Shown piece after piece: positions 2,916 through 62,150 of a stretch of 64,000 nt of DNA. Both the position numbers and the translations under genes were made by a program. Location: contig OZ024755.1 of assembly GCA_964016885.1 (NCBI GenBank), positions 22,134,001 through 22,198,000 on the forward strand. The letters are read 5' to 3'. This DNA is from Eledone cirrhosa (Eukaryota). The stretch's first letter is position 1. Each line of letters begins with the position of its first letter. The notes beneath the pieces are model-generated. The model was not told where the DNA came from and did not search any database. It was given only the letters and a program-made list of their open reading frames with translations.

Positions 2916-3292
2916 TGGCTGACTATCAAAAGGTAATGTAAGAGCTGTGAAATCTTGCATGCATTAATTTCAACTCTTCTTATTAAATAACCGAAATGTT
3001 TCTTTCCAGGGACTATGAAAAATATACCTCATTTGGTAATTCCATGGAAGTATCTTGGTCAGCATATGAACTTTTAAGCCAACTGGCGTATATAATGTGC
3101 GTATATATATATGATGTGTATGTACATATATATATATATATATATATATAAATATATAAGCAAAAGGGATATTTAACCTGTTGGTAATTCAACAAATATA
3201 TGTTTATAACTGATTCGAAGCACTCGACAGATTTCTGGAGTATAATATCAATGATATTAAATAAATGGAAACTATATTTATAAAACCATATT

Positions 3293-3354
3293 TATTCTAT
3301 TATATATATTTCAAGGGTACCAAAAATTTGGTCCCACTCTCATCAGATAAAATA
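3293..3354 (-). ncRNA. Hammerhead motif family A, mirror copy
   Basis: Inverted-repeat counterpart of 3507-3565 with intact CTGATGA/GAAA and a slightly diverged helix II. Confidence 0.62.
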
Positions 3355-3506
3355 CAAAGTTTGTTTTATAAATATTGACATATCCAGGAAGAAGATCTTA
3401 ACGGTTCAAGTTTTTCCTGGATAAGTTTATCAAGTTTTATCCAGGAAAAACTTGAACGGTTAAGATCTTCTTCCTGGATATGTCAATATTTATAAAACAA
3501 ACTTTG

Positions 3507-3565
3507 TATTTTATCTGATGAGAGCGTACCAAAGTGTTGGTACCCTTGAAATATATAATAGAATA
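3507..3565 (+). ncRNA. Minimal type I hammerhead ribozyme motif (family A)
   Basis: TATTTTAT-CTGATGA-GAGcGTACCAA agtg TTGGTACcCTT-GAAA-TATA-TA-ATAGAATA: helix I, core, helix II and a palindromic helix III are all visible. Confidence 0.72.
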
Positions 3566-4143
3566 AATATGGTTATATATATATATATATAATTTAGTAT
3601 ATCTACTAACATATGCGTACAGATGTACGCTAATGCCAGCAAATACACAGGTTATGTCATAGTACCTAGGTGGTTCAATGCAGGAGGATGCAGAACAATA
3701 ATATAAAAGACGTAAAATAAGAAAATTTAAAAAAAAAATTTTTTTTTTAAATTAACTTACTTACTTAAATTTATATATATAATTTTTGAATTTGTTTTGC
3801 AACATTTCTTATCTGAAAACGTGTGTTGAAACAGATATTGTTGTAGTTTGGGAGGGTCATGCTGCCAATGAAAATACACGCACCTTTATTATAAATTTCC
3901 GGTAAGTTAGTTGGTTCGATTACTGCAACACACAAAAACAAGATGGTGTAGGACAGAACAAAAGAGAGACCCAAAATAAAAACCTAGCCACTGAGGAGGT
4001 CACAGAATGTGTGACGAAAGAGCTTTGACAATATATAAACAACCCTCCGGTTATCGAACCAACCAATCAACCGGAAATTTTTAATAAATTGAAGTGAAAA
4101 TAAGCAGGTGCATGTGTTTTTACCCTTAAAATTATATATTATT

Positions 4144-4743: not shown

Positions 4744-4937
4744 TATATATATATATATATATAGGAACGAGTAGGACCCCGACGGCTGAGCTCAAGCCGT
4801 TTCGACGGCTAATTCTGGACTAATTGAGTCCAGAATTAGCTAATTCTGGACTCAATTAGTCCAAAATTCTGGACTAAGTATTGAGTACTTTGGTGCGTTA
4901 TGGTCCACCTGGTTCCTTACCACATTTCCTTCGTTAT

Positions 4938-8524: not shown

Positions 8525-8853
8525 AGGCATATGGCTTAGTGGTTAGAGCATTGGGCTTGCAATCGAAAGGTTGTGAGTTCAATTCTCAGACTGGGTGATA
8601 TGTTGTTTCCTTGAGCAAGACACTTTATTTTACATTGCTCCAGTTTACTCAGCTGTAGAAATGAGATGATAGAACAGGGGTCCCTATCATTCCACTGCAA
8701 AGTGGACGTGGAGGTGTCATGGAAAAAAAGCAACCAGCACTCACTGTAAATGAGGTTGGTGTTAGGAAGGGCATCCAGCTGTAGAAATCAAGCCAAAATC
8801 AGTTCCCGTCCCATCCTTGTAAGCAGGGAAAAGCGGGCGTAAAATGATGATGA
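8524..8853 (+). mobile_element. tRNA-derived SINE family B
   Basis: TGGCTTAGTGGTTAGAGC A-box, GAGTTCAATTC B-box, CCTTGAGCAAGACACTTTATTT core, (ATG)n tail; relatives at 13020-13346 (-), 27188-27530 (-), 46921-47367 (-), 50140-50385 (+), 59015-59243 (-). Confidence 0.85.
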
Positions 8854-12886: not shown

Positions 12887-13824
12887 AGTATATTTTGGTG
12901 GGTGCAATCATTCAGGCTAAATTTTTAGTTTGAGGATACCTTCCTCCATTTCACCAGTTTCAGAGTTCCTGAAAAGGGGTTATGGGCATTATTCTTTCCT
13001 CTCTCACTTGGTAAAGACCCCCTTCGGTCACGAATGACCATGGGATTTGCACCTAGAAAGTTCGCCTCCGTGGCACAAGTCGGGGCAAGATTGTTTGTGG
13101 AAGACCAGCAGTCGCCCATGCATACCAGCCTCCCCTCTCCACGCCACCGATGTTTTCCAAGGGAAAGGCAATGGTCGATACAGTTTGGCACTAGTGATGT
13201 TGCAACTCATTTCTACAGCTGAGTAAACTGGAACAACGTGAAATAAAGTGTCTTGCTCAAGGACACAACGCATCATCCAGTCCGAGAATCAAACTCGCAA
13301 CCTCCTGATTGCAAGCCCAATGCTCTAACCACTAAGCCATGCGCCTTGACTTAACAGGCAGCAAATTGGCAAAGTCATTAGCTCTGCTCTCTGAGTTCAA
13401 ATCCTGCAGAGGTTAACTTCATCTTTCATCCATTCAAGGTCAATAATAAAAGTACCAGTCTAGTACTGTTGATTCTTCCTCTATATCTTTTTCTCTCTTC
13501 CATTCTCTCATTCTCTATCTATCTTTCTCTGGAAAAATTCTGCTATATTCAAACCTGGAGAGGAGATGGGCTCCATCAGGTTTCAAAAATACTCTAGAAA
13601 CACTGCATGTCAATATGGCGCCCCTATGACTCTCTCAGGAGTGACGGGTTCATACTATATCTTGACTAAACAGTAAAAAAGAAAAAAGGGGGCGGGTGTT
13701 ATAAGGTGTCATATACAAATATTAAATCATTATATCTAAAATTTTAAACCTATTGAGCAAATTAAGAAAGAAAGTCATTTCTTGGTAAAGTTTCTGAAAA
13801 TAATATCTTTATTCTTCTCCTTAG

Positions 13825-18984: not shown

Positions 18985-21900
18985 CTGTAAATAAATAAAA
19001 AAAAAAAAGAATCAATTATATCGATTGAAGGGTCTTTGGAATAACATTATTTGATCGGTGGATTGGCAGTATCGGTAGAGGGTCGGACGCCATGCTTTCC
19101 AGCATAGTTACGTCCCTTTACAATCTGAGTTCAAATCCCGCCGAGGTTGACTTTGCCTTTCATCCTTACGGGGTCGATAAAATAAAGTACCAGTAATGCA
19201 CTGGGTAATTGCTGGCCTTGTGCCTAAAGTAGAAACAATTATTTGATAGGGTGCATAGTTCAGAGATCAGAAAGTCACTCCAGGTATAGCCGTTACTTCT
19301 CTGAACTGAGAGATCACATCTTTGATATCATAAATATGTGGTGAGAATGTCTCAGGAAAGAATCACTGGACAGATTTTATGGGAAAAACCAACTAGTAGG
19401 AGAACTGAGAGTAGACTCCGAGTAAGATGGTTGGATGACATCCAGGAGCTTGGCTGGTCTCACTTGTGGAGTCAGCCAGATCAATTAGAGACGGTTGCTT
19501 CTGACAGGACCTGCTGGAAGGAATGTTTGAGGACTCTGCTGCCCCAACGACCGTCCCAGGAATGTATGAGGAAAAATGAAGAAGCAGAAGAATAAGAATT
19601 ATACCGATTGAATAGAATTGATAGCAAAGTTTGCCAACACAAAATTTGTTTTTTTATTGACATTATATATAAGACTGAATATAAATATTGGACATTCTTC
19701 TATTAGTTTTAGTAATTTGGTTGAGCCGGAACAATCCCTTCAAGTGTATAATTGATTATATTGTCCTCACTAGAGTAACTGGTACTTAATTTATTGATCT
19801 TAGGAGGTTGAAAGTCAAATTTCACCTGGCATGGGTTGGAAAGGTCCTCATGGTTCAGGACTAAATTGGTCAGATAACTACATCTGTTTGAGACCCAGGA
19901 AGACTTGGGATGAGGTGATGAAAGCAGACCTTGCCCAATTGCACCTCTCAAAGGTGATGACACAGGACCGAGATCTTTGGCGTTATGCAGCAATACGGAA
20001 GACCTGACCTCCCACGGACACAGGCCAAAGCTGAAGCATATATACTGTATGCCCCACACTCCCACTGTAAAGTTGTTGTGTAGGTGTCATAACAAAAAGC
20101 ACTCAGTCCACACTGTAAAGTGGTTGTGTAGGTGTCATAACAAAAAGCACTCAGTCCACACTGTAAAGTGGTGTAGGTCTCAACAAAAAACACCCCAGTA
20201 CCTACTGTAAATGAAGTTAAATCCAGCTGTAGAAACCAAGCCAAAATCAGTTCTGTATGAACAAGACATGGTCACCTGACCTATCATTGCTCACAACAGG
20301 ACAACTTGTCTAACCCATGCTAACGTGAAAGAATGGACGTAAAACGGTGATGATGAGGATGATGATGTACTCTCCCGTCGATTTGACATATGAGGGTTCA
20401 ACAGTCTTTTCAGTTCATTGCTTTATTTTTATGCTTCATATGGCACTTCAATCCAGCTGCTGATTTACACAGCAATCCACATTCTGTGCAGGTGACAGGA
20501 TCTCGAACAGAGCAGGCTGGAATGTCTGACCAGACTTTGGTGTTAGATCTTAAGTTATGGAGGTGCGCTAAACGAGATTTCTCAAAGTTCATTATACCTT
20601 CATGACAGACAGTTCTCCATTTTTTACAGTTGGCAGTCATGGCTTCAAACAAAGAAAGATGTACATTGACAGACTTACGATTGTATTTCATTTTGTCCTT
20701 ATATCGGAGTAGTGGCCTGCTCAAACTATGCATGCCATCCTGGAGCTGACTGTACAACAGTACCTTAGGTGTGCAGTTCTCAGACATCCGTAGGGCATGA
20801 CCAGTCCATCTGAGTTGGGATTGCATCAGAAATGACTCAATCCCACCCATATATATATATTGAGCAAGACACTTTATTTCACATTGCTCCAGTTTACTCA
20901 GCTGTAGAAATGAGATGATAGGGACTGGGGTCCAAATCATTCCACTGCAAAGTGGTCGGTAGGTGCCACGGCAAAAAAAGCACCCTGCACTCACTGTAAA
21001 TGAGGTTGGTGTTAGGAAGGGCATCCAGCTGTAGAAATCAAGCCAGAATCAGTTCCCGTCCCACCCTTGCAAGCAGGGAAAAAGCGGACGTAAAATGAAA
21101 TGAATGATGATGAATGATATATGTATGTATACACACACACACATACATATATATCCAATCCAGAGCCTTCTCACTCCCTGGTTGACCTCCACTGCTTTCT
21201 GTTTGGATTTGCTCATGTCAGATGTGTAGTTGTACTCATCACACTTGGCCAGTTGCAGGTTGGTGAGGCTATTTAACCCATAATTGGGGTCGATGGCCGT
21301 TGACTCTGAGGAGTTCATCTGCCTTTTTTAGTGCTCTTGTATATCCAGTTTAGAATAGATACACCCTACTTTTGTGTGTCATAAGAAGCAACTAAAAAAG
21401 TTAGTACCAGAAAAGCAGATATTATTACATTGCCTCAAAAGTCCTGTCTGACCCATGCCAGCAAGTCAACGTCAAAACGATGATGATGATGATATAAATA
21501 TATAAAGAGAGAGTGAGATTGTATGTGTATGTGCGTGTATATATATGTGTGAGTGTAAATTCCTCCCTAAATAGATGACCACTCGGCTAGTGAATCAAAT
21601 GAATAGATTAAGTACTGGGGGATGATATGACTAACTGAAGTCATTGGAGACGGTGCCCTAGCATACTGTATTTCAATAACTGAAACCAGTAAAAGAATAT
21701 AAATACACATAGATCAGTTAAGGAAGAACACATTGATCATTTGTTTTTGTTTTGAAACATTTCTGTTTCACATTTAAAAAGAGGGTTTTAGCCCTGAAAT
21801 ATTGTGTTGAAATATACTGGGTAAAACATTACTTTTTGTTTTATTTGTCATCCTTTGCCCTTTATATATTTCTACCACATTGTACCGGCTATTTGAAACT

Positions 21901-24900: not shown

Positions 24901-27900
24901 TGTTAGATCCCAGATCTCATTCGCTTAGAAAGGGTTTATCAAAAATGTTACCAGAAAAAAAAAAAAAAAAGAAATAGAGAGTTAAGAGACAAACCTGTCA
25001 CCATCCCGAAGTCTGCGGAATTGATCAGCAATGATACATAAAAATGTTGGTCCCACTTTTGAATTTCTTATGGGAGCTTCACTTATTCCACCAACAAACA
25101 GATCAATGTTATCTACAAGACACAATGTTATTGGTAAGAAATATATACTTTTGGTGTTTTGTGGCAATGTTTTCATTTTTAGTTACTCCCCACTTTGACA
25201 GTTAGATATGAAATTTATTATGAATATAAATACAGTGTACCCACAGCATTCGTGGTCCTGGTTATTCACGGAACTTTCCTTAGAACCTAATTAAAATAAT
25301 TGTTCGTGGAAACCACTGTATATTCACTGAATCATAAATATCTTCTGCGATTTTTTTTTATGGCTTTTTTTTTGTAGCAATATATATTTTTTTTAAAACT
25401 AAATTATTAATAATATACCGTATTTGCTGGCTTATTAGACACCCCCTCGCATAAGACGCTACCTCTTTTTAAAATTATATTTTGCGTTATATTTTGACGT
25501 ATATAGGCATTTTTATGGACCACATCCAATTTTCATGGTTTTTCATTCTTCGCGAGTGGTCTAGGGACGTAACCCCTGTGAATACTGGGGCGACAACTGT
25601 ATATATATGAACAGATACCTCAGTACATGTTGGGTTACAGCACTGATATAGTGTCAGGAGGACTCTACATGGACATGACAACTTCACTAGTGCTTGTGCT
25701 ACAATAAAATGTATCCAGAGTACTCTGTAAAGTAATTGCCATTAGCATTCCCTTTAAATGGCATTAATCTCTCAGAGATGTGTGACATTAAATAATAATA
25801 ATAATAATAATAATGAAATTATTGTGTAAAGTGCTCAGGTGCACGACAACTCATCAAAGGTGCATGTATAGTACATAGAATAATATACAAATGTCAGGGA
25901 AGTGAATAGTGTAGGAGTCATGATATACATATGTGTATGTGTATGGAGGGGGAACATTAGGTGTAGTGTTGGCGAATCTCGGGAAGCATGGAGGTTTTAA
26001 AGGATGCAGTGTCTCGACAGCTAACAACTGATGCAGGTAGTTTGGTCCAGCAGATGCAAGACAAATATTCTTCTGAATAAGATGCCAGGCTACTGAAGAC
26101 AACTTTTTTTTGATGGAAAACTTAAACGTAGTGCTGCAAGTCAGTAAAGGCCAAATTTACAGCTACGTACAACAGATGCATGCAACAGGCCATTATACCA
26201 CCATAAGGGACCTATATACAACGGGCCATTGTACTCCCTTGAGGTACCTACATACAATATGTAATTATACCAGCTTGAGGTACCTACATAGAACAAGCCA
26301 TTATACCAGAGGTACCTACCATACCAACACACAAGCTTTGTAAGCCTCCTTCTTTCGAGTAATGTTATTCATTAGATTTGTATAGTTTGGAGATCAGAGA
26401 GGCACTCCAGGTAGAGCCGCTACTTTTCTGAATTGAGAGATCACTGCTCTGATACTATGGGCATGTGGTTAGAATGTCTCCGGAAAGATTTTACAGGCAA
26501 AAACCAACTGGCAGGAGACCCAAGGGTAGACTCACGAGCAAGATAGTTGGATAACATCCATGAGCTTGGCTGGTCTCACTTTGAGATCCAGCAGGATTAG
26601 TTGGAGATGGTTGCTTCTGACAAGACCCACTGGAAGGAGTGGTTGAGGGCTCTGCCCCATGACCCTCTCAGGAATAAGTGGGTGAAGAAGTACCACCAAT
26701 ATACAGCTAAATGTTTTCATCTATGGCTAAGACAATGCTAGTGACAGGATACAAACCTTTCATTCTTCACTTTGTTCCTTGTTAACATGTCAACGAGATT
26801 ATCTATGTTGTTTTTGTTACCATTCCCATTTACATGGATTTAGCCAGCCTCTTATGGATGGTCTCTCGGTGGAAGGGGGAGGAACTTGAACTCAGGATGT
26901 ACACAGAGAGAGAGAGCACATATACTGCATGTCTGATGCTCTAACAATTCCATGAATCCACCATCTTGGACTGGTACTTTACTTATCAGTGTCAAAAAGG
27001 ATGGAAGGCAAAGTTGACTTAGGAAGGATTTGAACTCAGAATAAAGTTAGTTAGAACAGATACCACAATTCATTCTATCCAAATCTCTAACAGCTTCCCA
27101 ATTAAGTTATCTATGTTCTAATGTGGTAAGAACTCTCAGGAGAGCTGGACAGCAGAAAGTCTTCAGAGAAGAACATCCCCTTCAAACATCATCATCATCA
27201 TCATTATCATTTTACGTCTGCTTTTCTCTGCTTGCAAAGGTGGGACGGGAACTGATTCTGGCTTGATTTCTACAGCTGGATGCCCTTCCTAACACCAACC
27301 TCATTTACAGTGAGTGGTGCGTGCTTTTTTTCCGTGGCGCCTACACGACCACTTTGCAGTGGAATGATAGGGACCCCTGTTCTATCATCTCATTTCTACA
27401 GCTGAGTAAACTGGAGCAATGTGAAATAAAGTGTCTTGCTCAAGGAAACATCACATCACCTGGTCTGAGAATTGAACTCACAACCTTTCAATTGCAAGCC
27501 CAATGCTCTAACACTAAGCCATGTGCCTCCATAAACAAGTATTTTTATATATGTGTGTGTGTGTGTGTGTGTGGTAACAAACTCACAGGAGAGCTAGTCA
27601 TCAGAAGGTCTTCACAGAAGACCTCCCAACCACCACCTCAAGCATGTGTTTTGGCCCTTAATAATTATCATAATATGGCAATAGAAGGAAACATCACTTC
27701 TAGTAAGCAATACTAACCTGGATGTCTATAGAGAGTTTCTAGATGAGATCGTATCTTTGAATCTGGAATTTCTTTTTTTAACTGAATGAACGACTTGGCT
27801 TTCTTCATCCCACAAAAACCTCTGTATTCATTGTAGCTGGGAAGGCCATGATCTCTGCCTCGTTGAATGTTTAAAGAAGCTAGGTCTTGTCCAACTGAAT

Positions 27901-33900: not shown

Positions 33901-35961
33901 GTTAACCTCGGATAATATTGAAAATGGTAATAGTCAAAAATACGATTGCACATACAAGTGGCTGAAATAAGGTTCTTCTGAAGAGTCTTTGGAGTAATGT
34001 TACTCAATAAAATGCAGAGCTCAGAGATCAGAGTGTTGCACCAGGTAGAGCCACAACTTCTCTGAATTGGGAGATCACATCTCCAATATCATGAATATGT
34101 AGTGAGAATGTCTCAGGAAAGAATCACTGGATAGATTTTATATAGAAAACTACCTAGCAGGAGACCCAGGGGTAGACCATGAGTAAGATGGTTGGATAAG
34201 ATCTATGAACTTGGCTGGTCTTGCTTAAGGATCCAATCAGATCAACTGGAGACAGGACCCCCTGGAAGGAGTGTTTGAGGACTCTGCCCCAACAACCCTA
34301 TTCCCGTGGTTCCAAATTCCTTTTTTTTTTTGTTTTTATGATAATTTCAAATGTTTCTCAGACATTCTACATTGGTCACAAGATTGGTGATATTAAGTTT
34401 TGGGACATTTCATTCCTTGGACTACCATTCAACCTACCATTATCTTGTATTTAATATTGACTACCTTAGTCTACCTAATAATGTATGTGTGTATGTGTAT
34501 GTTGATTTATGCTATGTGTGTGTGATATGGTTTATGCTATGTATGCAAGTGTGTGTGTGTGTAAGAGTAAGTGAAAGGAAGATAGAGAGGAAGAGAAAAT
34601 GTCAGATTGAAAAAGTGTAACAAAAGTAACTTGTCACTGTGATTAAATTATTCTCTAATGACAATAACATGCTTCTTACTTTGTATGGTTATTTGTAATT
34701 CTCTGACAGAAATGCCAGAACTGCTAGAAGCTGTACACCGATAAATGCCTTGATCTTCTGCTTGGATGTTTACAATGACAAGAGAACCAGTTGTTGACAA
34801 AGTTATGTGGTCAGGAGTTGACAAAGGCTGGTCATCTTTAGTCCAGCTAATTCTGGCAGAACTATCTATATTTTCTCCACATTGAAGTTCTATTTGATCT
34901 CCTAATTTAGCCATGACATCCAATAGTCTTCCTTGAAAACCTCCCCTGACTGGAAAAAGCAGAAAGTTTATTTGATATTTAGAATTCATTAAACATATTT
35001 TTGTTACACAGAATAAAAATGAGTGTAGAAAAAAAAAAGGGCTTGGACTCTCCCTCAATTAGACATTGTAACGATGTTGTGGCCCTTTAAAGGTTTTTGA
35101 GGCAACTCATAATAATTGTTTCTACTTTTGGCACAAGGCCAGCAATTACCCCAGTGCATTACTGGTACTTTATTTTATCGACCCCGTAAGGATGAAAGGC
35201 AAACTTAACCTCGGCGGGATTTGAACTCAGACCGTAAAGGGGCGTAACTCTATGCTACAGAGCATGATGTCCGACTCTCTACCGATACTGCCAATCCACC
35301 GCCCTAAAAGAAAATAATAATTGTTTCTAATTTAGGCACAAGGCCAGCAATTACCCAGTGCATTACTGGTACTTTATTTTATCGACCCCGTAAGGATGAA
35401 AGGCAAAGTCAACCTCGGCGGGATTTGAACTCAGATCGTAAAGGGACGTAACTATGCTGGAAAGCATGGTGTCCGACCCTCTACCGATACTGCCAATCCA
35501 CCGCCCCTAAAAGAAAATAATAATAATAATTGTTTCTCCTTTTGGCACAAGACCAGCAATTACCCCTGTGTATTACTGGTACTTTATTTTATCGACCTCC
35601 TAAAGATGAAAGGCAAAATTAACGTCAGTGGGATTTGAACTCAGAATTAAAGGGCCATAACTCTATGCAACAAAGCATGGTGTCTGGTACTCTACTGATA
35701 CTGCCAATAATAATAATAATTGTTTCTACAATTAGCACACAAGGCCAGCAATTTGAAGGGAAGAGGGGAAAGTCAATTAAACCAACCCCAATATGTTACT
35801 GGCGCTAAACTAATAATAATGAACAGAAAATTAAAATTAAGAAGTAAAGAAAATGTTTGTTTTACCGATTTGCCTAGCAGGAAATCTTTGCGAACTTGGA
35901 GGGAAATTTCTCCGTGCTGTATAAAGAAACAAAATGTATTTATGTATTAACATACATACGA

Positions 35962-36023
<62 letters not shown>

Positions 36024-38282
36024 AATTAACGAAGATCACTGCTGGCCAACATCCCGCTCACTCCATGAATCTGCCAATTTGCAGTAATGCAGCTGCAATC
36101 AGCTGTTCAGAGTGCACCACACATTTAGTTAACAACAGATACGGTGGTTGTGCTTTGGTAGAGAGAAAGATGTATATATATATATATATATATATAATGT
36201 AGGAGGTGAGTTTTATTGTAGTACAATAAAGCAATGCAGATATCGGATAAGAAGCACTCTACAATTTGTAGGACTGGAGTATGCATAATATAAGATCAAA
36301 AGATGGTTAAAGGAGTTCCATGTATTTTATTATGCGCATTTCAAAAACAAACATCATCATGCAATAATATTTGTGTTTTCATCAGATAAAACAGGAGAAC
36401 ATGATATGAAGGCTAAAAAACACTTGTGGATAGTGCAGTTTTAAATCAACATATGTTGATATCATGTTCTCCTGTTTTATCTGATGAAAACACAAATATT
36501 ATTGCATGATGATGTTTGTTTTTGAAATGCGCATAATAAAATACATGGAACTCCTTTAACCATCTTTTGATCTTATATTATATATATATATATATATTCA
36601 TCTATATATATATATTCATCCTCCTCTACTACTATCTCTTTACCTTGCCTTGACCCTCACCCCACTTCTCTACACTTCCGACCACCACTAACATTGGATT
36701 CTACACCACCCGGCATCTCTCCAGCCATCCACTCCATAACATGGAAAATATCCAGCATCTCTTCTCACACTCGATGGAACTACCTCGGAACTTACCCACG
36801 AACATATACTCACATTTTTTTTCGCACCACGCCACCCACATATAAACAAACACACACGTGCGTACCCCCACATATACACACTCAACCTCCGGAATCCACC
36901 CCCCCCTCTGACCCCCCTCCTGCCACACGCACGCACACACTGACTTAAACCCTACCTCATGCACACACCTTTTTCTGAACATGGAACCTCGTCCTTCTTC
37001 TCACATACACACACACTCACGTACACCTACACACATACACAAACACCACCTTCAGCCTTCCCTGCTTCGACCCCCCGCCTCCCTCGCCCAACTCCACCCA
37101 CCACCACCCTTACACGCCTCACACCCTTCCACCACTTGCTCATCTTATTGTTTATTTTTACGCTTATTTTTATTTTTATTTGTTCTCCTTCCCCCTTTTT
37201 TCTAAATGTATTTCCACACACCCTCGGAACTCTCTTCCTAACCTATTTATCCTGAAGAAGGTCTTATGCCCGAAATGTCCCCCCTCCCACTCTCAAGAGC
37301 GTGAACCTAATAAACCTTTATTTGTCTGCCTTCCTGTTTTGTTCCTGTCTACATTTGCACTATATATATATATATAGATGTGTTTGTGTTTTTTTTTTCC
37401 ACAAATTTTTTCTTCATTCTTTCCTCTTCCCACTATCTTTCTATTTTATCTTTTATTTCTCATTCTATCTTCTGATGAAGGACTAGTGAAGAAACATTAA
37501 GACTCTTTTCCTATTATTTCAAGTGTTAAACTAATATATTTTTTCATTGTACTGTGTTGTCTGCTTTGTTAGTTCTGTTTACTTTTCACACACTCAAACA
37601 TTCTTAATTTTTCTGAAGAAAAGTTTCTATAACCATATCAGTTTACACTTTGTTGATGTAAAGACTGTTTCAAATAAAATAAGCAGTTAGTAAATAATAT
37701 TTCAGTATAACATGTGAATAATATATATATATATACAGTATATATTTTGAGTTTATGTTGGTTGTATACCAACACCTCAGTATGCAGGCTGGAGCACTCG
37801 ACGAAGTGCGCCGGTTGGTTTGGTTACTCCGGAGTAGTGTAAAATAAAGTTAAATAAAAGTCAAATGATTAAAATTTAGCTTCGTTTATTACTGCTATAT
37901 ATATTTCAGTGACAGCCATCTTTGGCTGTGACCTCTTCAGGCAGTTTGAATTAGTATGGTATAGACAAGTACATATGTTGTTTAGGTGTATGATATTGTC
38001 AATACTCTGATATGCCCAGTTCCTTGTTGGGTTGTTAATTCACTGGGGAACTGGAGTCATATGACTCCAGTTCCCCAGTGAATTAACAACCCAACAAGGA
38101 ACTGGGCATATCAGAGTATTGACAATATCATACACCTAAACAACATATGTACTTGTCTATACCATACTAATTCAAACTGCCTGAAGAGGTCACAGCCAAA
38201 GATGGCTGTCACTGAAATATATATAGCAGTAATAAACGAAGCTAAATTTTAATCATTTGACTTTTATTTAACTTTATATACA

Positions 38283-44687: not shown

Positions 44688-47600
44688 TAACAGCAGCGGT
44701 AGTAGTTGTTGTTCTCTTGATGCTTGGAATTAATTAAAAATAATTCTAAAATAATCAGACACATGGGTGCCATAAAACTAATCCTTCACAAGGACATTGA
44801 GAAGACAAGATTCCAAATTAAGGGTTAGAAAAAAAAACTTTTAAAAACAGGAAATTAGGCAAATGAAAAAAAAAAAAAGCAAATTCTTAATGGCATGTAT
44901 TTTGGAAATATTCACAAATTTAATTCTTTATATTTTACCATTTTATTTACCATTTAATTCTTTATTTAATTTAATTCTTTATATTTTACCATTTTATTTA
45001 CCATTTAATTCTTTATTTAATTTAATTCTTTATATTTTACCATTTTATTTACCATTTAATTCTTTATTTAATTTAATTCTTTATATTTTACCATTTTATT
45101 TATTCTTCATTTGAAGGGAAATTAAGGACATTATTAAAAAGGTAATACACTGGCATAATTGCTGGCCTTGTGCCAAAACTAGAAACAATTATTAAAAAGG
45201 TTATTAAGGACATAATTAAAGGGCGGGGGATTGGCAGAATCGGTAGAGGGTCGGACACCATGCTTTGCAGCATAGAGTTATGTCACTTTACGATTTGAGT
45301 TAAAATCCCACCGAGGTTAACATTGCCTTTCACCCTTAAGGGGTCGATAAAATAATCCACTAGTAATGTACTGGGAAAATTGCTGGCCTTGTGCTAAAAG
45401 TAGAAACAATTATTAAAAAGGTGAAATAAAATCGGTTTGGAACTGGAAAAATCTATATTTTATTGAAGTAAATTAGTTTTGATGACATCTAATGTATTGG
45501 AATGATGCACAAATGGCAGACTTTACAATATATCTTCCAGCGTTAAGTTTTAACCATTTGTATTCTGATTTCAAATGTTGGTGATATTGATAATTGATTT
45601 TAGTGATTGATTGATTTATTTTTGCTTCTTTTCAACTTTACAGCCATTTAGAAACTATATGAGATCTTTATATGTTATGCCTTAACCCTTTTGTTACCAA
45701 AGGCCAAAACTGGCTCTGGTTTTATGAAATAAAGCCACCCATTTTAAAGGTTTCTAATTTAAATTAAAATCTTCCAACATAATTTTATATAAGAACCTTA
45801 CATTAAGTTAATATCTTAGTAATGAAATAATTAATAAATTTAGTCTCTCAAAATTCTTCATTAATTAATTGAAACAGTGTATTTCATTAGAAATGTGGTC
45901 ATGAAAGGGTAAAAAAAAAAGAACAGAATGCTAAGGTCATACCCAGAACACTTCTCATCAGATATTTGTTTAATCCCTAGCTGAAACAGGTTTTTGTAAA
46001 TAGTCTATAGATTAGTCTCCTATTGAGATAAGCTGAGGTCGGTTTCAGCAAACCTTGGCTCAAGCTAAAGCTAGATTGGTCTCTTAACTGCTTGCCATCA
46101 AGAAATCAGAATTTAGCATTCAACTTTTAAAAAAAGCTCTCAAAATTTAACAAATATTTAAATTTTAATAATGTAGTCCTAGATTCACTATGCCAGAATA
46201 AAAAAAATGAGATCTGCACAATAAAGACTGACCTGGGACCAAACAATAACAGCAGCAGCAACCAATCTGCAATAGTTATAACTACAACCTTACCTATACT
46301 AAATTGTACCTACTGTTACCAAATTAAGAGTACTATGAAGGTGGGTGGCTTGGTGGTTAAAGAATTGGATTTGCAATGGTGAGCTTGTGGGTTCAAAGCC
46401 TGGGCTGGATGATGTATTATGTTCTTGTGCATGACACTTTATTTCATGTTGCTCCTTCTGCTAGGAGCTGTAACTGGTAGATAGTATCAGCAATGGAAAC
46501 ATTGTTTCCTTGGTCCAATTTCACGAGTTCTACCTCAATCGGTAAGCAAATGAAGTCTAGGAGTTTGTAGATTGAAGAGTATTAACCGTGAAACTGTGAA
46601 AATGGCCCACTTACTCATTCCTAGATTAACTAATGGAAGAAAATAATTTAGTTGACAGGTCTATACTTACGACATAGGAACTGCTCAGGGGAGAGTTCTG
46701 CCACTAATTTCCCTGAAACACTGGCAGGTGATTCACAGGTGGCAGTTGATTCTTCAATGAGAACACTTAGTCTGCCTGACAGCCAGCTCAGTTTACAGTC
46801 ACATATCAATGGATTACCATGTAGGTAGCTACAATATAAAACATATACCAATGGATTACCATGTAGGCAGCTACAATATATAACATAATATACCAATGGA
46901 TTACCATGTAGGTAGCTTCAATCATCATCATCATCATCATCACTGTTTTACCTCCACTCTTCCACGCTAGCATGGGTTAGACGGGTTGTCCTGTTGTGGG
47001 CAGTGTCCGATCGGCTGTCCTTGTCTTGCTCATACAGGAACTGATTCTGGCTTGATTTCTACAGCTGGATGCCCTTCCTAAAACCAACCTCAGTGAGTGC
47101 TGGATGCTTTTTTTTCCATGGTGCCTACAAGACCACTTTACAGTGTGGGCTGGGTGCTTTTTTTGCCGTGGCACCTCCACAACCACTTTGCAGTGGAATG
47201 ATAGGGACCCCAGTCCCTATCATCTCATTTCTACAGCTGAGTAAAAACTGGAGCAATGTGAAATAAAGTATCTTGCTCAAGGAAACAACACATCACCCGG
47301 TCCGAGAATTGAACTCACAACCTTTCGATTGCAAGCCCAATGCTCTAACCACTAAGCCATGCGCCTTCACTACAATATATAACATAATATACCAATGGAT
47401 TACCATGTAGGTAGCTACAATATAAAACAATATACCAAAGGATTACCATGTAGGAAGCCACAATATAAAACAATATACCAATGGATTACCATGTAGGTAA
47501 CCACAATATAAAACATATACCAAAGGATTACCATGTAGGTAGCTACAATATATACCATAATATACCAATGGATTACCATGTAGGTAGCTACAATATATAC

Positions 47601-50107: not shown

Positions 50108-50144
<37 letters not shown>

Positions 50145-53100
50145 TTAGTGGTTAGAGCATTGGACTTGCAATCGAAAGGTTGTGAGTTCAATTCTCGGAC
50201 CGGATGATGTGTTGTTTCCTTGAGCAAGACACTTTATTTCAAGTTGCTCCAGTTTACTCAGCTGTAGAAATGAGTACCGGCCTGCCCGCCCAGCCAGTGG
50301 GATGGCGTTATCTTATGACTAAAACAGCACAACGTGCTGTGACCAGCAGCGGTGATTGGCGCCCGACAGACTGGTCGGTCAAGATGTATATATATATCAA
50401 ATGTATCATAATGTATATATATATCAAATGAAGCAACGGAGTAAAGGACTCGCATTGTTCCCTGGTGGTAAAAATACCCTGTAATGAAAAAGCATGTTCT
50501 TTTTATGTATTCTCTCCTATATATATATAAACAATGATTGGAATTTACTTACAGTTTACGCAATTTTCGTAAGCCAGCAAAAACTCCAGCAGATAAAGTC
50601 TTAATTGAGTTATTTTGCAAATATCTAAAGATGAAAATAGGAAACCATTACTTAGTTTTTCAAAATAGTGATGGCAGTGATGATGATGGCAATGGTGATG
50701 ATGATGGTGGTGATGATGATGAGGACGACAACTGTGATGGTGGTGGTGGTGGTGATGATGGTGATGGCGGTGATGATGATTATGGTGGTGATGATGGTGA
50801 CGACAATGATGCTGGTGGTGGCGGCAGACATGGTGATGATGGAGGAGGTGGTGGCAGTGATGATGATTATGATGGTGATGGTGGTGGTGATCATGATAAT
50901 GGCGGTGATGATGATGGTGATGATACTGATGATGATGATGGTGGTGGTGGTGGTGGTGGTGGTGGTGGCGGCGGCAGACATGGTGATGATGATGGTGGTG
51001 GTGGCAGTGATGATGATGATGATGGTGATGGTGGTGGTGATGATAGTGATGATGATGGTGGCAGTGATGGTGGTGGCGGTGGTGGTGGCAGTGATGATGA
51101 TGGTGGTGGTGGTGGTGGTGGCAGTGATGATGGTGGTGGTGGTGGCAGTGATGATGATGGTGGTGGCAGTGATGATGGTGGTGGTGGTGGTGGCAGTGAT
51201 GGTGGTGGCAGTGATGATGATGATGGTGGTGGTGGTGGTGGCAGTGATGATGGTGGTGGTGGTGGTGGTGGCAGTGATGGTGGTGGTGATGATGATGATG
51301 ATGGTGGTGGCAGTGATGATTAACACATGGTGATGTTAAACATGATTAAATAACTTGAATCAGGCTCGGATTAAAATGAAAAATGGGCAGAAAATACATG
51401 AAAGTGAGAACATTTATAAAAGACGTGAATATAATTGTAAAATATATTTTATACAACTTACAAGTGTTCCAAATTCGCGAGTTCATTGAAAGTTCCAACT
51501 TGTATAGTTTCAATTTGGTTATTGTATAAGTAACTTCAGAGGAAACCCCAAAAAAGAAAAAGAAAAAAATATATGGTTTTATAAATATAAGGAAAAAAAC
51601 CTGTCCTGTGGTAATGGCCAGGGCTGTCTTAACACATGGGCACTCTGGGCAATTGCCCCGGGGGCCCCACGAGGATAGGAGACCCATTTGTATTTTTTTT
51701 ATTCCTGTGAGTGGTTGTGTAGGTAGGGGCCCCAGTGCTCTGCTTTGCCTGGGGGCGGGGGGCCTAAAATGCTGTTAAGACGACCCTGGTAATGGCTGTA
51801 ATATATTCTGCAAATATATACATTTATATACATCCACACACTCTCTCTTTCTCTCTCTCGCCCTCTCTCCCTTGCCCTCGCTCACACATTCACACACATG
51901 CACAAGCACTATGTATGTAAGCTAGGAAAAATGGTTGAAATATATATATCATCATCATCATCATCACCATCATCACCGTTTTACGTCCGTTCTTCCACGC
52001 TAGCATGGGTTAGACGGGTTGTCCTGTTGTGGGCAGTGTCTGGTCGGCTGACCATGCCTTGCTCATACAGGAACTGATTTGGCTTGATTTCTACAGCTGG
52101 ATGCCCTTCCTAACACCAACCTCATTTACAGTGAGTGCTGGGTGCTTTTTTTCCATGGCGCCTACACGTCCACTTTACAGTGTGGGCTGGGTGCTTTTTT
52201 GCTGTGGCAACTCCACGATCACATTGCAGTGGGAGGGTGTGGGGGCATATTGTCTATATACTTCAGCTTGTACCCATGGGAGGTCGGGTACTCTGTATTA
52301 CTGCGTGACGCCAGAGGTCACAGTCATGTGTCATCGCCTTTGAGAGGTGTAGTTGGGTAAGGTCGGCTTTTATCACCTCATCCCAGGTCATCTTGGGTCT
52401 CCCCACTCCGCGGTTTCCATCAACTTCTAGTGCTCTGCACCTTTTTATGCAGCTGTCATCCTTCATACGCATCACATGTCCATACCAACGCATCCGCCTC
52501 TCCTGCACACAATATTTGATTCCTCTTATGCTCAGTCTCTCTCTCAATTCATTTATGCTTTGTATATATATAATAAAAGAAGTGTGGTAAGGAACCAGGT
52601 GGACCATAACGCACCAGAGTACTCAATACTTAGGATAGTAGAGTGGGTAATAGGAAAATGTTCAAGACCCCGACGGCAGAGCTCAAGCCATTTCGACGGC
52701 TATTACTGGACCGGAAATAGCCGCCGAAACGGCTGGAGCTCTGCCGTCGAGGTCTTGAACATTTTCCTATATATATATATATATAGAGAGAGAGAGAAAG
52801 AGAGAGAGATCTCAGACCTCAGATGTTACTTGCTTATCAAGTGGGGTGAAACTCATTAGATCAGATCCAAAGAAACAATGTTTCTGTTGGTCTTTCCATT
52901 GCTCATATTAATAATATTAATAATTAATATTAATAATGAAATTATTGTGTAAAGTGCTCAGGTGCACCACAACTCGTCAATATAGTACATAGAATAATAC
53001 ACAAATGTCAGGGAAGTACATGTGTGTATTTGTTAGCTGTAGTGTTGGCGGATCTCGGGAAGCATGGAGGCTTTAAAGGATGCAGTGTCTCGACAGCTAA

Positions 53101-55476
53101 CAACTGATGCAGGTAGTTTGTTCCATGCTTCAGCAACTCTGAGCGTGAAAAAATGTTTCCGAAAGTCATGAGAACTGTGCTGTTTTCTTACTTTGTGGGC
53201 ATGCCCACGTGTGTTAGACACATGGAAATCAAAAAGGTACTCAGGGTTGTTGTTGGCAACATGGTTAACAATTTTGTGGGTGTTTACCAAGTCAGTTGCC
53301 AGGCGTCGGAGCTTCAATGAATACTATCTCCCAGTCACAACTCCTGGCAGAAGGAGCAACATGAAATAAAGTGTCTTGCTCAAGGACACAATGCCTGGCC
53401 TGGGAATTGAACTCACAAGCTCATGATTGGGAATCCAATCAGATGTACCCATAACTAGTAAGTGTGCCAAAAAACCTGGCAGAGCCCATCTTCTCTCCAG
53501 GTCTGAATACAGCAGATTTCTTCCAGAGAAAGATAGAGAGACTGAGAGAATTGAAGTGAAAAAGATATATAGAGGAAGAATCAACCCCAGTACTAGACTG
53601 GTACTTTTTATAGACCTCGAAAGGATGAAAAGCAAAGTTGACTTTGGCGGGATTTGAATTCAGAGAGCAATGAGCTGGAATGAACACCACAAAGCATTCT
53701 GTTTAACGCTCTTATGACTCTGCCAAGATGGATAACATCCATGAGCTCGGCTGGTCTCGCTTGGGGATCCAGCTGGATCAGTTGGAGTCAGTTGCTTCTA
53801 ACAGGACCTGCTGGAAGGAGTGTTTGAGGATTCTGCCCCCCCCCCCCCTCCTCATGACTCTCTCAGGAATAAGTGGGTGAAGAAGAAGAAGAACTGCTGA
53901 ACGATATACCATATTTGGTGCATTTCTTTTCCCCAAAATATATTCTAAAATCTTTCCTGTGTCCAATACCCCTGTATCATTGATGGGAGGCCAAACAGAG
54001 GGTCAGGACAATCATGGTTAAAAAAATTTAGTTAGTTTTACTATTAGTATTACTAATACAGTGATGCAATACAATTTATATAAGCAAAATGATATTGACT
54101 TATATAAAAGTTTCTGAAAGAACAATGAAATAATTTTTAATAAATTTATGAAGTAATATACTAAAATTCTTTTTCTCAAAATGTCCTTGTAAAACCAGGG
54201 GTGTCTTATACTAAGGGTCATCCAATAGGCCAACAAATACAGTACTTTACTTACAGTTCTCGTAATGATGGCAACCCAACAAAGGCATTTCTGTTTAGGA
54301 CATCTAATTCATTGTGATTCATCAACCTGGAACACAAACAAATAACATCAAATTAATTAAATGGTGCTCTGAAATAGCGATGTATATATGAATGTATATA
54401 TAGTGTATTTTGCAATACACTCTATGCTTAATTAAAAGTATTTTGAAGACCATACAATATTGTTTTAAAATAGTGACAATGTCACTTATTTAAATTTTTT
54501 TTTTTGGAGACAGTACTTCTTGATACACCAAACATTTCGGTTGTTTTCGTTACGCTAGCACCTGCCATACGAGCACCAACAATTTGACCTCTTTGAAAGT
54601 CCGATTGATCTGTCATTTTAATGAATTCTAATTACCTTTTTCTGATGATATCTGAAAATAAACAGCAATTTTAACAAAACATATTAAGCAACACTAATAA
54701 TAAATAAAAAAAAACATAAAAATAAACAAGCTTTTGATTGTTTTATAGATATTTCAAAATTATGATACTATGATGCTAGGTGTTTCCATTATTTTGTCCA
54801 ACCCCTGTTTATATTTATATATATATATATATATTTATAATATAAGATCAAAAGATGGTTAAAGGAGTTCCATGTATTTTATTATGCGCATTTCAAAAAC
54901 AAACATCATCATGCAATAATATTTGTGTTTTCATCAGATAAAACAGGAGAACATGATATGAAGGCTAAAAAACACTTGTGGATAGTGCAGTTTTAAATCA
55001 ACATATGTTGATTTAAAACTGCACTATCCACAAGTGTTTTTTAGCCTTCATATCATGTTCTCCTGTTTTATCTGATGAAAACACAAATATTATTGCATGA
55101 TGATGTTTGTTTTTGAAATGCGCATAATAAAATACATGGAACTCCTTTAACCATCTTTTGATCTTATATTATGTATACTCCAGTCCTACAAACTGTAGAG
55201 TGCTTCTTATCCGATATCTGCATTGCTTTATTGTACTACAATAAAACTCACCTCCTACATATATATTTATATATATATATATACTGTATATATATATATA
55301 TATACATATATATACTGTATATATATATGTGAGAGAGTTGGGGGAGGTGAGTGTGAGTGTGAATATGGATGGTTATACAAATGTATATAAGTGTATAGGA
55401 ATATATATTAAAGAGAATCTATGTATGTGTGTGAAACAAAGTGCATTCATATGTGTCTATGAGGGGGAGATATGTA

Positions 55477-60515: not shown

Positions 60516-61651
60516 CTGAAGGAAAGAAAAATAGGGCAAGAAAAAAAAATTACTAAATGAATGAAATTTACTGTGGAATGAATTACAAGGGATTTTTTTT
60601 TTCATTTCTTAGTATTTTTTTTTTTAATTCACTAGAAAAAGACCTGCAAAGGTTAGAAAGAAATTAAGTGGGCATGCTCTGGTGGATGTGTAATGTCAGT
60701 GAACCATGTGGTATAAGTGAGCTGAGAGTTAGTGTGTATCTAATAATTGTTTCTACTTTTGGCACAAGGCCAGCAATTATCCAGTGTATTACTGGTACTT
60801 TATTTTATCGACCCCGTAAGGATGAAAGGCAAAGTTAACCTCGGCGGGATTTGAACTCAGATCATAAAGGGGCGTAACTCTATGCGTCAAAGCATGGCGT
60901 CCGACCCTCTACCGATACTGCCAATCCACCGCCCTAGTGTGTATCTAATAATATTGGTTAATAGAATGTACATCTTTTCACTACATAACACCAAACCTAA
61001 AGTTTTATTTAGCACCAATTTATGGAATAAATGTTTTGAATCGACAACAAATTTAGACAATTTGCTTTGAAATAAATCTACAGCAAGTGTTTATTTTTAC
61101 ATTAGTTTTTTTTATATCAAATCACCTGAAAATGCCCCAAGTTGCCACTGGTAAATAGTATCAACGATGGAAAGAGCAATGGAATTATTGTTTCCTTGGT
61201 CCAATCAGTACACAAATGTCTGAGGTCTTGTTGATTGATTTGATTGATCGAATATTTATCTAAATACTTTCCCTAAGAACCTTTGTTAAGTTATGTTCCA
61301 AAAAAACATTTGTTAATTATGTTTCAAAGAACATTTGTTATGTTCCAAACAGCAACTTAATAATTGCTTCCACTTTTGGCACAAGGCCAGCAATTATCCC
61401 AGTGCATTACTGGTACTTTATTTTATAGACCCTGTAAGGATGAAAGGCAAAGTTAACCTTGGTGGGATTTGAACTCAGACTGTAAAGGGCTGTAACTCCA
61501 TGCTGCAAAGCATGGCGTCCGACCCTCTACCGATATTGCCAATCCACTGTAGCTTAATAATGAAGAAAATTACATATTTTACTAAACCGTACCAAATTCC
61601 TGATTATTTTTTTAATTATTTGAAAATCATAAGAATGCTTTTAATTCGATA

Positions 61652-62150
61652 CATAGTAATGAAATAAGGAATAGGGGTACTTTTAGAGATATAGTAATGA
61701 AATAGGGGTACTTTTAGAGATATAGTAATGAAATAGGGGTACTTTTAGAGATATAGTAATGAAATAGGAGTACTTTTAGAGATATAGTAATGAAATAGGA
61801 GTACTTTTAGATATATAGTAATGAAATAGGAGTACTTTTAGATATATAGTAATGAAATAGGGGTACTTTTAGAGATATAGTAATGAAATAGGGGTACTTT
61901 TAGAGATATAGTAATGAAATAGGAGTACTTTTAGATATATAGTAATGAAATAGGGGTACTTTTAGAGATATAGTAATGAAATAGGGGTACTTTTAGATAT
62001 ATAGTAATGAAATAGGGGTACTTTTAGATATATAGTAATGAAATAGTAGTACTTTTAGATATATAGTCATGAAATAGGGGTACATTTAGATATATAGTAA
62101 TGAAATAGGGGTACATTTAGATATATAGTAATGAAATAAGAGTATTTTTC
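61652..62150. repeat. 29-bp minisatellite, about 17 copies
   Basis: Unit ATATAGTAATGAAATAGGGGTACTTTTAG. Confidence 0.95.

Follow-up and report, generated by a model that had tools for sequence, protein, structure and literature searches.

Recurrent head-to-head joints at a probable RNA 5′ end in a Hydra-type Penelope-like retrotransposon of Eledone cirrhosa

Two palindromic sequences within 64,000 nt of Eledone cirrhosa DNA (the window; contig OZ024755.1, positions 22,134,001 to 22,198,000) are almost certainly the 3′ end of a Hydra-type Penelope-like retrotransposon, comprising a pseudo-LTR, a type I hammerhead and a tail of ~88 nt. Each is likely to be a separate, truncated head-to-head insertion, joined where two separately primed cDNAs ran off the 5′ end of the RNA. 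The family is real, young and very abundant. Elements of this class, their hammerhead and their inverted architecture are already known, and the value of the finding lies in the statistics of the junctions.

The palindrome at 54837–55260 (copy A) and the reverse complement of that at 36197–36582 (copy B) can be aligned over their whole length, the only differences being two substitutions, both located in the tail, and a single gap of 39 nt. Positions are numbered from the A of an ATATG sequence, so that +1 is window position 55003. Copy A is a perfect palindrome with arms of 168 bp about a centre at 55004/55005. Its tailed arm (55003–55259, forward strand) runs from +1 through the pseudo-LTR to about +168, and then through the tail (55171–55259) to +257, the putative first start site of reverse transcription. 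From +1 to +255 this arm is identical to the 3′ end of a long genomic copy (L041), and it has a 97% match to the 3′ end of the parent element (L031). The inverted arm (54837–55006, reverse strand) matches the tailed arm perfectly over 168 nt, from +1 to about +168; it has no tail and passes directly into (TA)n, making the palindrome asymmetric. The self-complementary ATAT at the joint (55003–55006) is common to both arms. Copy B has the same centre (36452/36453). Its tailed arm (36198–36454, reverse strand) extends from +1 to +257, while the tail-less arm (36451–36582, forward strand) comprises +1 to +10 and +50 to +168, with +11 to +49 skipped between GTTGAT and CTTCAT. This junction was found once in the whole genome. 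Both copies are bounded by (TA)n, remnants of the target, at 54810–54836 and 55260–55328 for copy A and at 36165–36197 and 36583–36615 for copy B, and target-site duplications are unreadable within these tracts. The first-pass annotation of the window had described two near-identical, inversely oriented, (TA)n-flanked copies with a common fold-back point, a 39-nt deletion in one arm of the 36-kb copy and hammerhead motifs on both strands, and in all of this it was correct, but the tail on one arm, and with it the asymmetry, had been missed. It had named a segmental duplication including the flanks as the alternative; the 3 kb flanks share only scattered repeat fragments of 71–86% identity, and that origin is rejected. 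Its view that the fold is neither a one-off event nor an assembly error also holds, assembly error being excluded solely through the recurrence of the same fold (629 loci) and the variety of the joints.

Genomic copies were counted by exact sequence patterns. In the 3.0-Gb genome a 33-mer from the tail is matched exactly 10,593 times, and a 35-mer from the hammerhead 8,091 times. The matches occur as diverging pairs about 100 to 6,000 bp apart, and the wide pairs, with the same arms, enclose an ORF that reaches 821 codons in L031. The hammerhead palindrome had been thought to constitute a family of its own, and is instead the truncated end of this autonomous element, whose unit length is 3,732 nt and whose last 257 and 168 nt are the copies in the window. 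The tail is followed by a TA-type microsatellite in 95 of 100 cases and by the leader of the ORF in five; direct junctions of tail and leader form tandem copies in L034, L035, L048, L135 and L097. Pseudo-LTRs in partial tandem or inverted arrangement, with the tail on one end, are also present.

The protein encoded by L031 has the reverse transcriptase (RT) motif YRDD, and DKT in place of DKG (HSDKTNN, in a column conserved in the aligned homologues). These are followed by a CxCx5C linker (C680-C682-C688), and by CxxC (C780-C783), the catalytic E786 and N799, and CxH (C808-H810) in the endonuclease part. The C-terminal LIYEC...FTYFGST belongs to a GIY-YIG-type endonuclease. Near the N terminus the family has RWT or RWI where most homologues have RWK or RWR. 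The homologues are 31–42% identical and nearly all are without a name; the motifs are kept (8 of 25 aligned). The protein was not recognised in Pfam and PDB sequence searches, while its atlas neighbours at 0.95–0.98 include GIY-YIG/RVT_1 clusters. Placement in the Hydra clade is based on the motifs, compared by eye with published Hydra references. The linker between the RT and the endonuclease carries an Asn-rich insert. The 3′ UTR of ~1 kb contains tandem repeats of ~220 and ~111 nt, the number of which varies by subfamily (L031:3800-4790; L034:1160-1650). Fragments of other RT ORFs adjoin family copies (L039:2190-4419, L169 and L176, of YVDD type in the last two), which suggests shared (TA)n targets or nesting.

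The Hydra clade of Penelope-like elements with a C-terminal endonuclease, with an octopus member Hydra-1_Obim, was described by Craig et al. 2021 (PMC8557442). In the available part of that account its members share with the present family an RT followed by a GIY-YIG-type endonuclease, the DKT, CxCx5C, CxxC and CxH motifs, a hammerhead in the pseudo-LTR, (TA)n targets, an inverted 5′-truncated partner and a tail on one end. The unit here is longer (3.73 kb, whereas Hydra elements are generally <3 kb, a typical rather than diagnostic length), as is the tail (~88 nt against 30–40), RW-T/I takes the place of RWK, and the copies number about 10,000. The same part of the description makes no mention of a joint fixed at one base.

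A motif scan finds CTGATGA...GAAA-TGCGCA-TA at 55072 and 36481 on the forward strand and at 54937 and 36385 on the reverse. This is one motif occurring once per arm, since each copy is a palindrome. The minimal type I hammerhead of copy A (55064–55134, forward strand; mirrored in the inverted arm at 54875–54945, reverse strand) would comprise stem I, CTGATGA at 55072–55078, a long stem II, GAAA at 55115–55118 and the palindromic TGCGCA of stem III. With the core constrained it folds at −11.7 kcal/mol, the unconstrained z-score being −1.18, and in a dimer fold the 2-bp palindromic stem III pairs better. The core is kept in 10 of 11 aligned copies. No hammerhead family was matched in Rfam at E≤1, with only miRNA-hairpin look-alikes below threshold, so that it is the core motif and the constrained fold that point to a hammerhead. 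Cleavage is predicted after 55126 (+124) in copy A and after 36535 in copy B.

The hammerhead cut was considered as the fold point and rejected, as only two of 100 tailed arms start at +121 to +128. At most it is a minor second break point. Arms that deviate right after the predicted cut product number 225, against 125 at a control 2 nt upstream. Among fetched loci judged by eye, 17 of 30 were true breaks at the cut and two of 10 at the control (21 and 4 by a cruder script), giving estimates of ~128 and ~25 breaks from small samples and one control position. One perfect palindrome (L199/L200, G000:C1 about 244,900,725) is centred on the predicted cut, and in L209, L210 and L217 an arm ending at the cut is joined to an arm starting at +1. 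The excess of breaks and the palindrome at the cut hint at a minor use of cleaved RNA as template, self-cleavage itself being predicted.

At the fold point the parent reads TTTTC-ATATG. The exact fold of copy A occurs at 629 loci genome-wide. A further 2,198 arms stop at +1 and are followed by C (in the sense of the cDNA) and 2,266 by A or T, while 4,864 read through; thus ~54% of the arms that reach +1 stop there, an approximate figure since the counting patterns differ in length. Among the first 100 tail matches, the tailed arm starts between −2 and +3 in 28 and >200 nt further upstream in 33, with the rest spread. The fold point is therefore reproducible and belongs to a mobile family, as had been proposed, although most copies of the family join their arms elsewhere.

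The base at which the arms fold is, judged from the joints, probably the 5′ end of the RNA of the element, and an RNA starting there would likely be capped. The genome predicts G as the next base after the end of the cDNA, so that the extra C at the joints is not genomic. Reverse transcription can copy the G of a cap as C. This base accounts for 49% of the imperfect (C, A or T) joints, compared with 22% of the non-G bases of the element; many of these Cs, for example in L106, L107, L128 and L068, are at the same time part of microhomology with the partner arm, which weakens the count. In L030 both arms have the extra base, and it also follows tail-less arms that end at +1. TTCATA at the fold point presumably corresponds to the metazoan initiator consensus. 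Tandem re-copies of the first 8–46 nt are found at the joints of L121, L144, L057 and L060, resembling repeat addition at the end of a template and consistent with an RT located there. A Penelope pseudo-LTR promoter with a fixed start is described for Drosophila virilis in the available part of PMC2377424.

The same site could instead be a pause of the RT or a hotspot of DNA breakage, arising from local RNA structure or from the CATATG palindrome naturally present there, rather than from an RNA end. The parent does have this 6-nt palindrome, and a weak hairpin is predicted with +1 paired at its base. Yet most stops at +1 bypass the palindrome (4,464 joints with C, A or T compared with 629 perfect folds), the genome does not supply the extra C, and L199/L200 has a perfect fold at a further predicted RNA end, the hammerhead cut. 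Such an origin is highly improbable.

A second Hydra-type family is located at 37743–38277, with perfect arms of 217 bp and a tail of ~98 nt on the left. Its hammerhead has a TATATA stem III, and its fold site is again TTC-ATATG, with a CCAAT box upstream; exact matches number 1,323, and L162 contains an endonuclease fragment. Its protein is 46% identical to the parent over 145 amino acids of the endonuclease part. By eye, the break lies no more than about 8 nt from the TTC-ATATG in 18 of 30 arms, which adds to the case for an RNA start at this base.

The fold very probably arises again and again, rather than descending from a single master copy. On a tree built from 82 tailed arms (shallow, with unsettled bootstrap) the 20 perfect-fold rows require 17 changes, where the shuffled mean is 17.3 and 285 of 500 shuffles are as low. 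Several of these rows are identical to arms of long copies; copy A corresponds to the arm of L041, while copy B groups with L018. The fold copies are thus scattered among long copies, as expected for a recurring fold. In 39 copies the arms differ by 1.2 changes within a copy and by 3.5 between copies. The suggestion that the fold-back is a heritable feature is not supported, the fold copies being polyphyletic and the junction of copy B unique.

These data bear equally on the possibility that the palindrome is a non-autonomous family, similar to a retrozyme or MITE, that propagates, fold included, by means of the parent's enzyme. The 629 loci with an exact joint would be in keeping with this, and a promoter downstream of +1 could work in the stub, so that some second-round copying is possible. 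Against it, the fold rows form no lineage of their own and have arms identical to those of long copies, the joints are mostly private, and the read-through RNA is predicted to fold into a single hairpin of −286 kcal/mol that buries the ribozyme. There is also no tandem array running from hammerhead to hammerhead, a head-to-tail array of such units being absent from both loci in the window. The available part of bioRxiv 10.64898/2026.07.22.740005 describes non-LTR retrozymes that are likewise short, non-coding, derived from Penelope pseudo-LTRs and equipped with a type I hammerhead; those are head-to-tail arrays cut from hammerhead to hammerhead, whereas the arms here are head to head and start 124 nt upstream of the cut. 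Self-copying of this kind is largely refuted and very unlikely.

Among 48 short copies, the tail-less arm extends further 5′ than the tailed arm in 24, falls short of it in four and starts within 10 nt of it in 20. These 48 are the copies, out of 100, in which an adjacent tail-less inverted arm was resolved (19 had no resolved partner and 33 were not followed to the joint), and choosing copies by their tail biases the sample towards short tailed arms. Of 24 long loci mapped, 10 tandem or complex ones were excluded. By eye, the remaining 14 simple copies have a longer tail-less arm in seven, a longer tailed arm in four and near-equal arms in three, and the excess of the tail-less arm reaches 1.9 kb in L032. 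Each arm can thus hold sequence that the other lacks, so both require an RNA template unless there was later deletion. In three of the 14 long copies both arms break within 40 nt at arbitrary places, and hence the arms are not fully independent. In L012 and L189 the tailed arm consists only of 13–29 nt of the end of the tail, joined to a full tail-less arm.

We favour double priming as the likely route. A promoter in the pseudo-LTR would start the RNA at the A of TTC-ATATG, and the RT/endonuclease would nick a (TA)n tract on both strands, with one nick priming at the end of the tail (+257) and the other at the UA-rich end of the pseudo-LTR (+168). If the template were the upstream pseudo-LTR and tail of a tandem RNA, or a short RNA made from any 3′ pseudo-LTR, the two cDNAs would run out at +1, having reached only 257 and 168 nt, and priming on the downstream tail would give the long copies. 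The ends would be joined by microhomology, annealing through the self-complementary ATAT; a perfect palindrome would result where both cDNAs were complete, and otherwise an asymmetric joint. The hammerhead would be cargo on mostly uncut RNA. In the twin priming of L1, cDNA is started from both nicks of the target, and microhomology links the two products to give an inversion; the second primer anneals upstream, giving two pieces without overlap. Here, in contrast, both pieces would cover the same pseudo-LTR and give an inverted duplication.

A single cDNA could alternatively extend from the tail to the 5′ end of the RNA, snap back on the ATAT, be copied to +168 and join the TA target, with the asymmetric joints left by later deletions of an unstable palindrome, as they could be. 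In that event the arms within a copy should be near-identical, as they are, and the tip deletion that copy B resembles, together with the near-symmetric long copies L037, L044 and L045, would find a ready explanation. In L060 a private 20-nt re-copy is mirrored in both arms, which is easier to generate by DNA-templated fold-back than in two independent cDNAs, and self-priming is proposed for palindromic joints in the available part of PMC3846280. However, snap-back gives a tailed arm that is at least as long as its partner and unbiased deletion would not reverse this, yet the tail-less arm is the longer by 24 to 4, with the excess of up to 1.9 kb in L032, and the extra C follows tail-less arms that end at +1. 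As the general route, which the first-pass annotation had offered as one option, snap-back is thus not borne out and we regard it as unlikely, although local fold-back at the joint is seen in one case (L060). A mixed route, in which one cDNA folds back locally before annealing to the other, would cover both L060 and copy B.

Double priming has parallels in the Poseidon element PAc of Anolis (Frangieh et al. 2024, PMC11167929), where the Penelope protein in vitro nicks and extends both strands, RT starts at two internal sites bounding the tail, targets are AT-rich, uncut RNA is the main template, and hammerhead cleavage is not needed. PAc belongs to another clade and its hammerhead overlaps the start of the ORF; the account, in the part available, leaves inverted arms and a fixed 5′ stop unexplained. 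Insertions in Adineta vaga also have head-to-head pseudo-LTRs, a palindromic joint, a tail on one arm and an initiator-like motif in the pseudo-LTR (PMC3846280, available part), but these are few copies, and the explanation given for them, self-priming with an antisense template, is not favoured here by the asymmetry of the arms or by the cap-like base. Inverted partners, tails and palindromic joints are therefore already published for Penelope elements in what is available of PMC8557442 and PMC3846280, the former naming the origin of the inverted structures as an open problem; PMC13282606 adds, in its available part, nothing further on structure.

On balance the junctions may be read as a fossil record of Penelope double priming, in which two cDNAs begun at the sites bounding the tail reach one capped RNA end, copy the cap and join head to head. 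If so, the inverted repeat plus tail that marks the whole class would be explained without an antisense template, and transcription starts and ribozyme cuts could be read from DNA alone. Hydra elements may then share the TTC-ATATG start, the self-complementary 5′ end favouring the join. A young family of ~10,000 copies with a fixed joint provides the statistics to decide between snap-back and double priming, and the predictions are exact to the base: the RNA should begin with a cap at 55003, reverse transcription should be initiated near +168 and +257, and a minor cut product should appear at +125.

Several other repeats were observed in the window. A third head-to-head hammerhead element (CTGATGAG...GAAA-TATATA) lies at about 3270–3600, with an imperfect centre and a nested inverted repeat, and ends in (TA)n. 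An abundant dispersed repeat of ~200 nt, presumably SINE-like and partly tandem or inverted, is found at 1102–1520, 19056–19243, 35109–35708, 60738–61579 and elsewhere. Weak tRNA-like Rfam matches at 8530–8593, 13278–13341, 27465–27521, 47302–47359 and 50141–50198 are probably the heads of a tRNA-derived SINE. A 48-bp perfect palindrome lies within a short repeat at 4816–4863, and a 31-bp satellite of 15.5 copies occupies 61670–62149.
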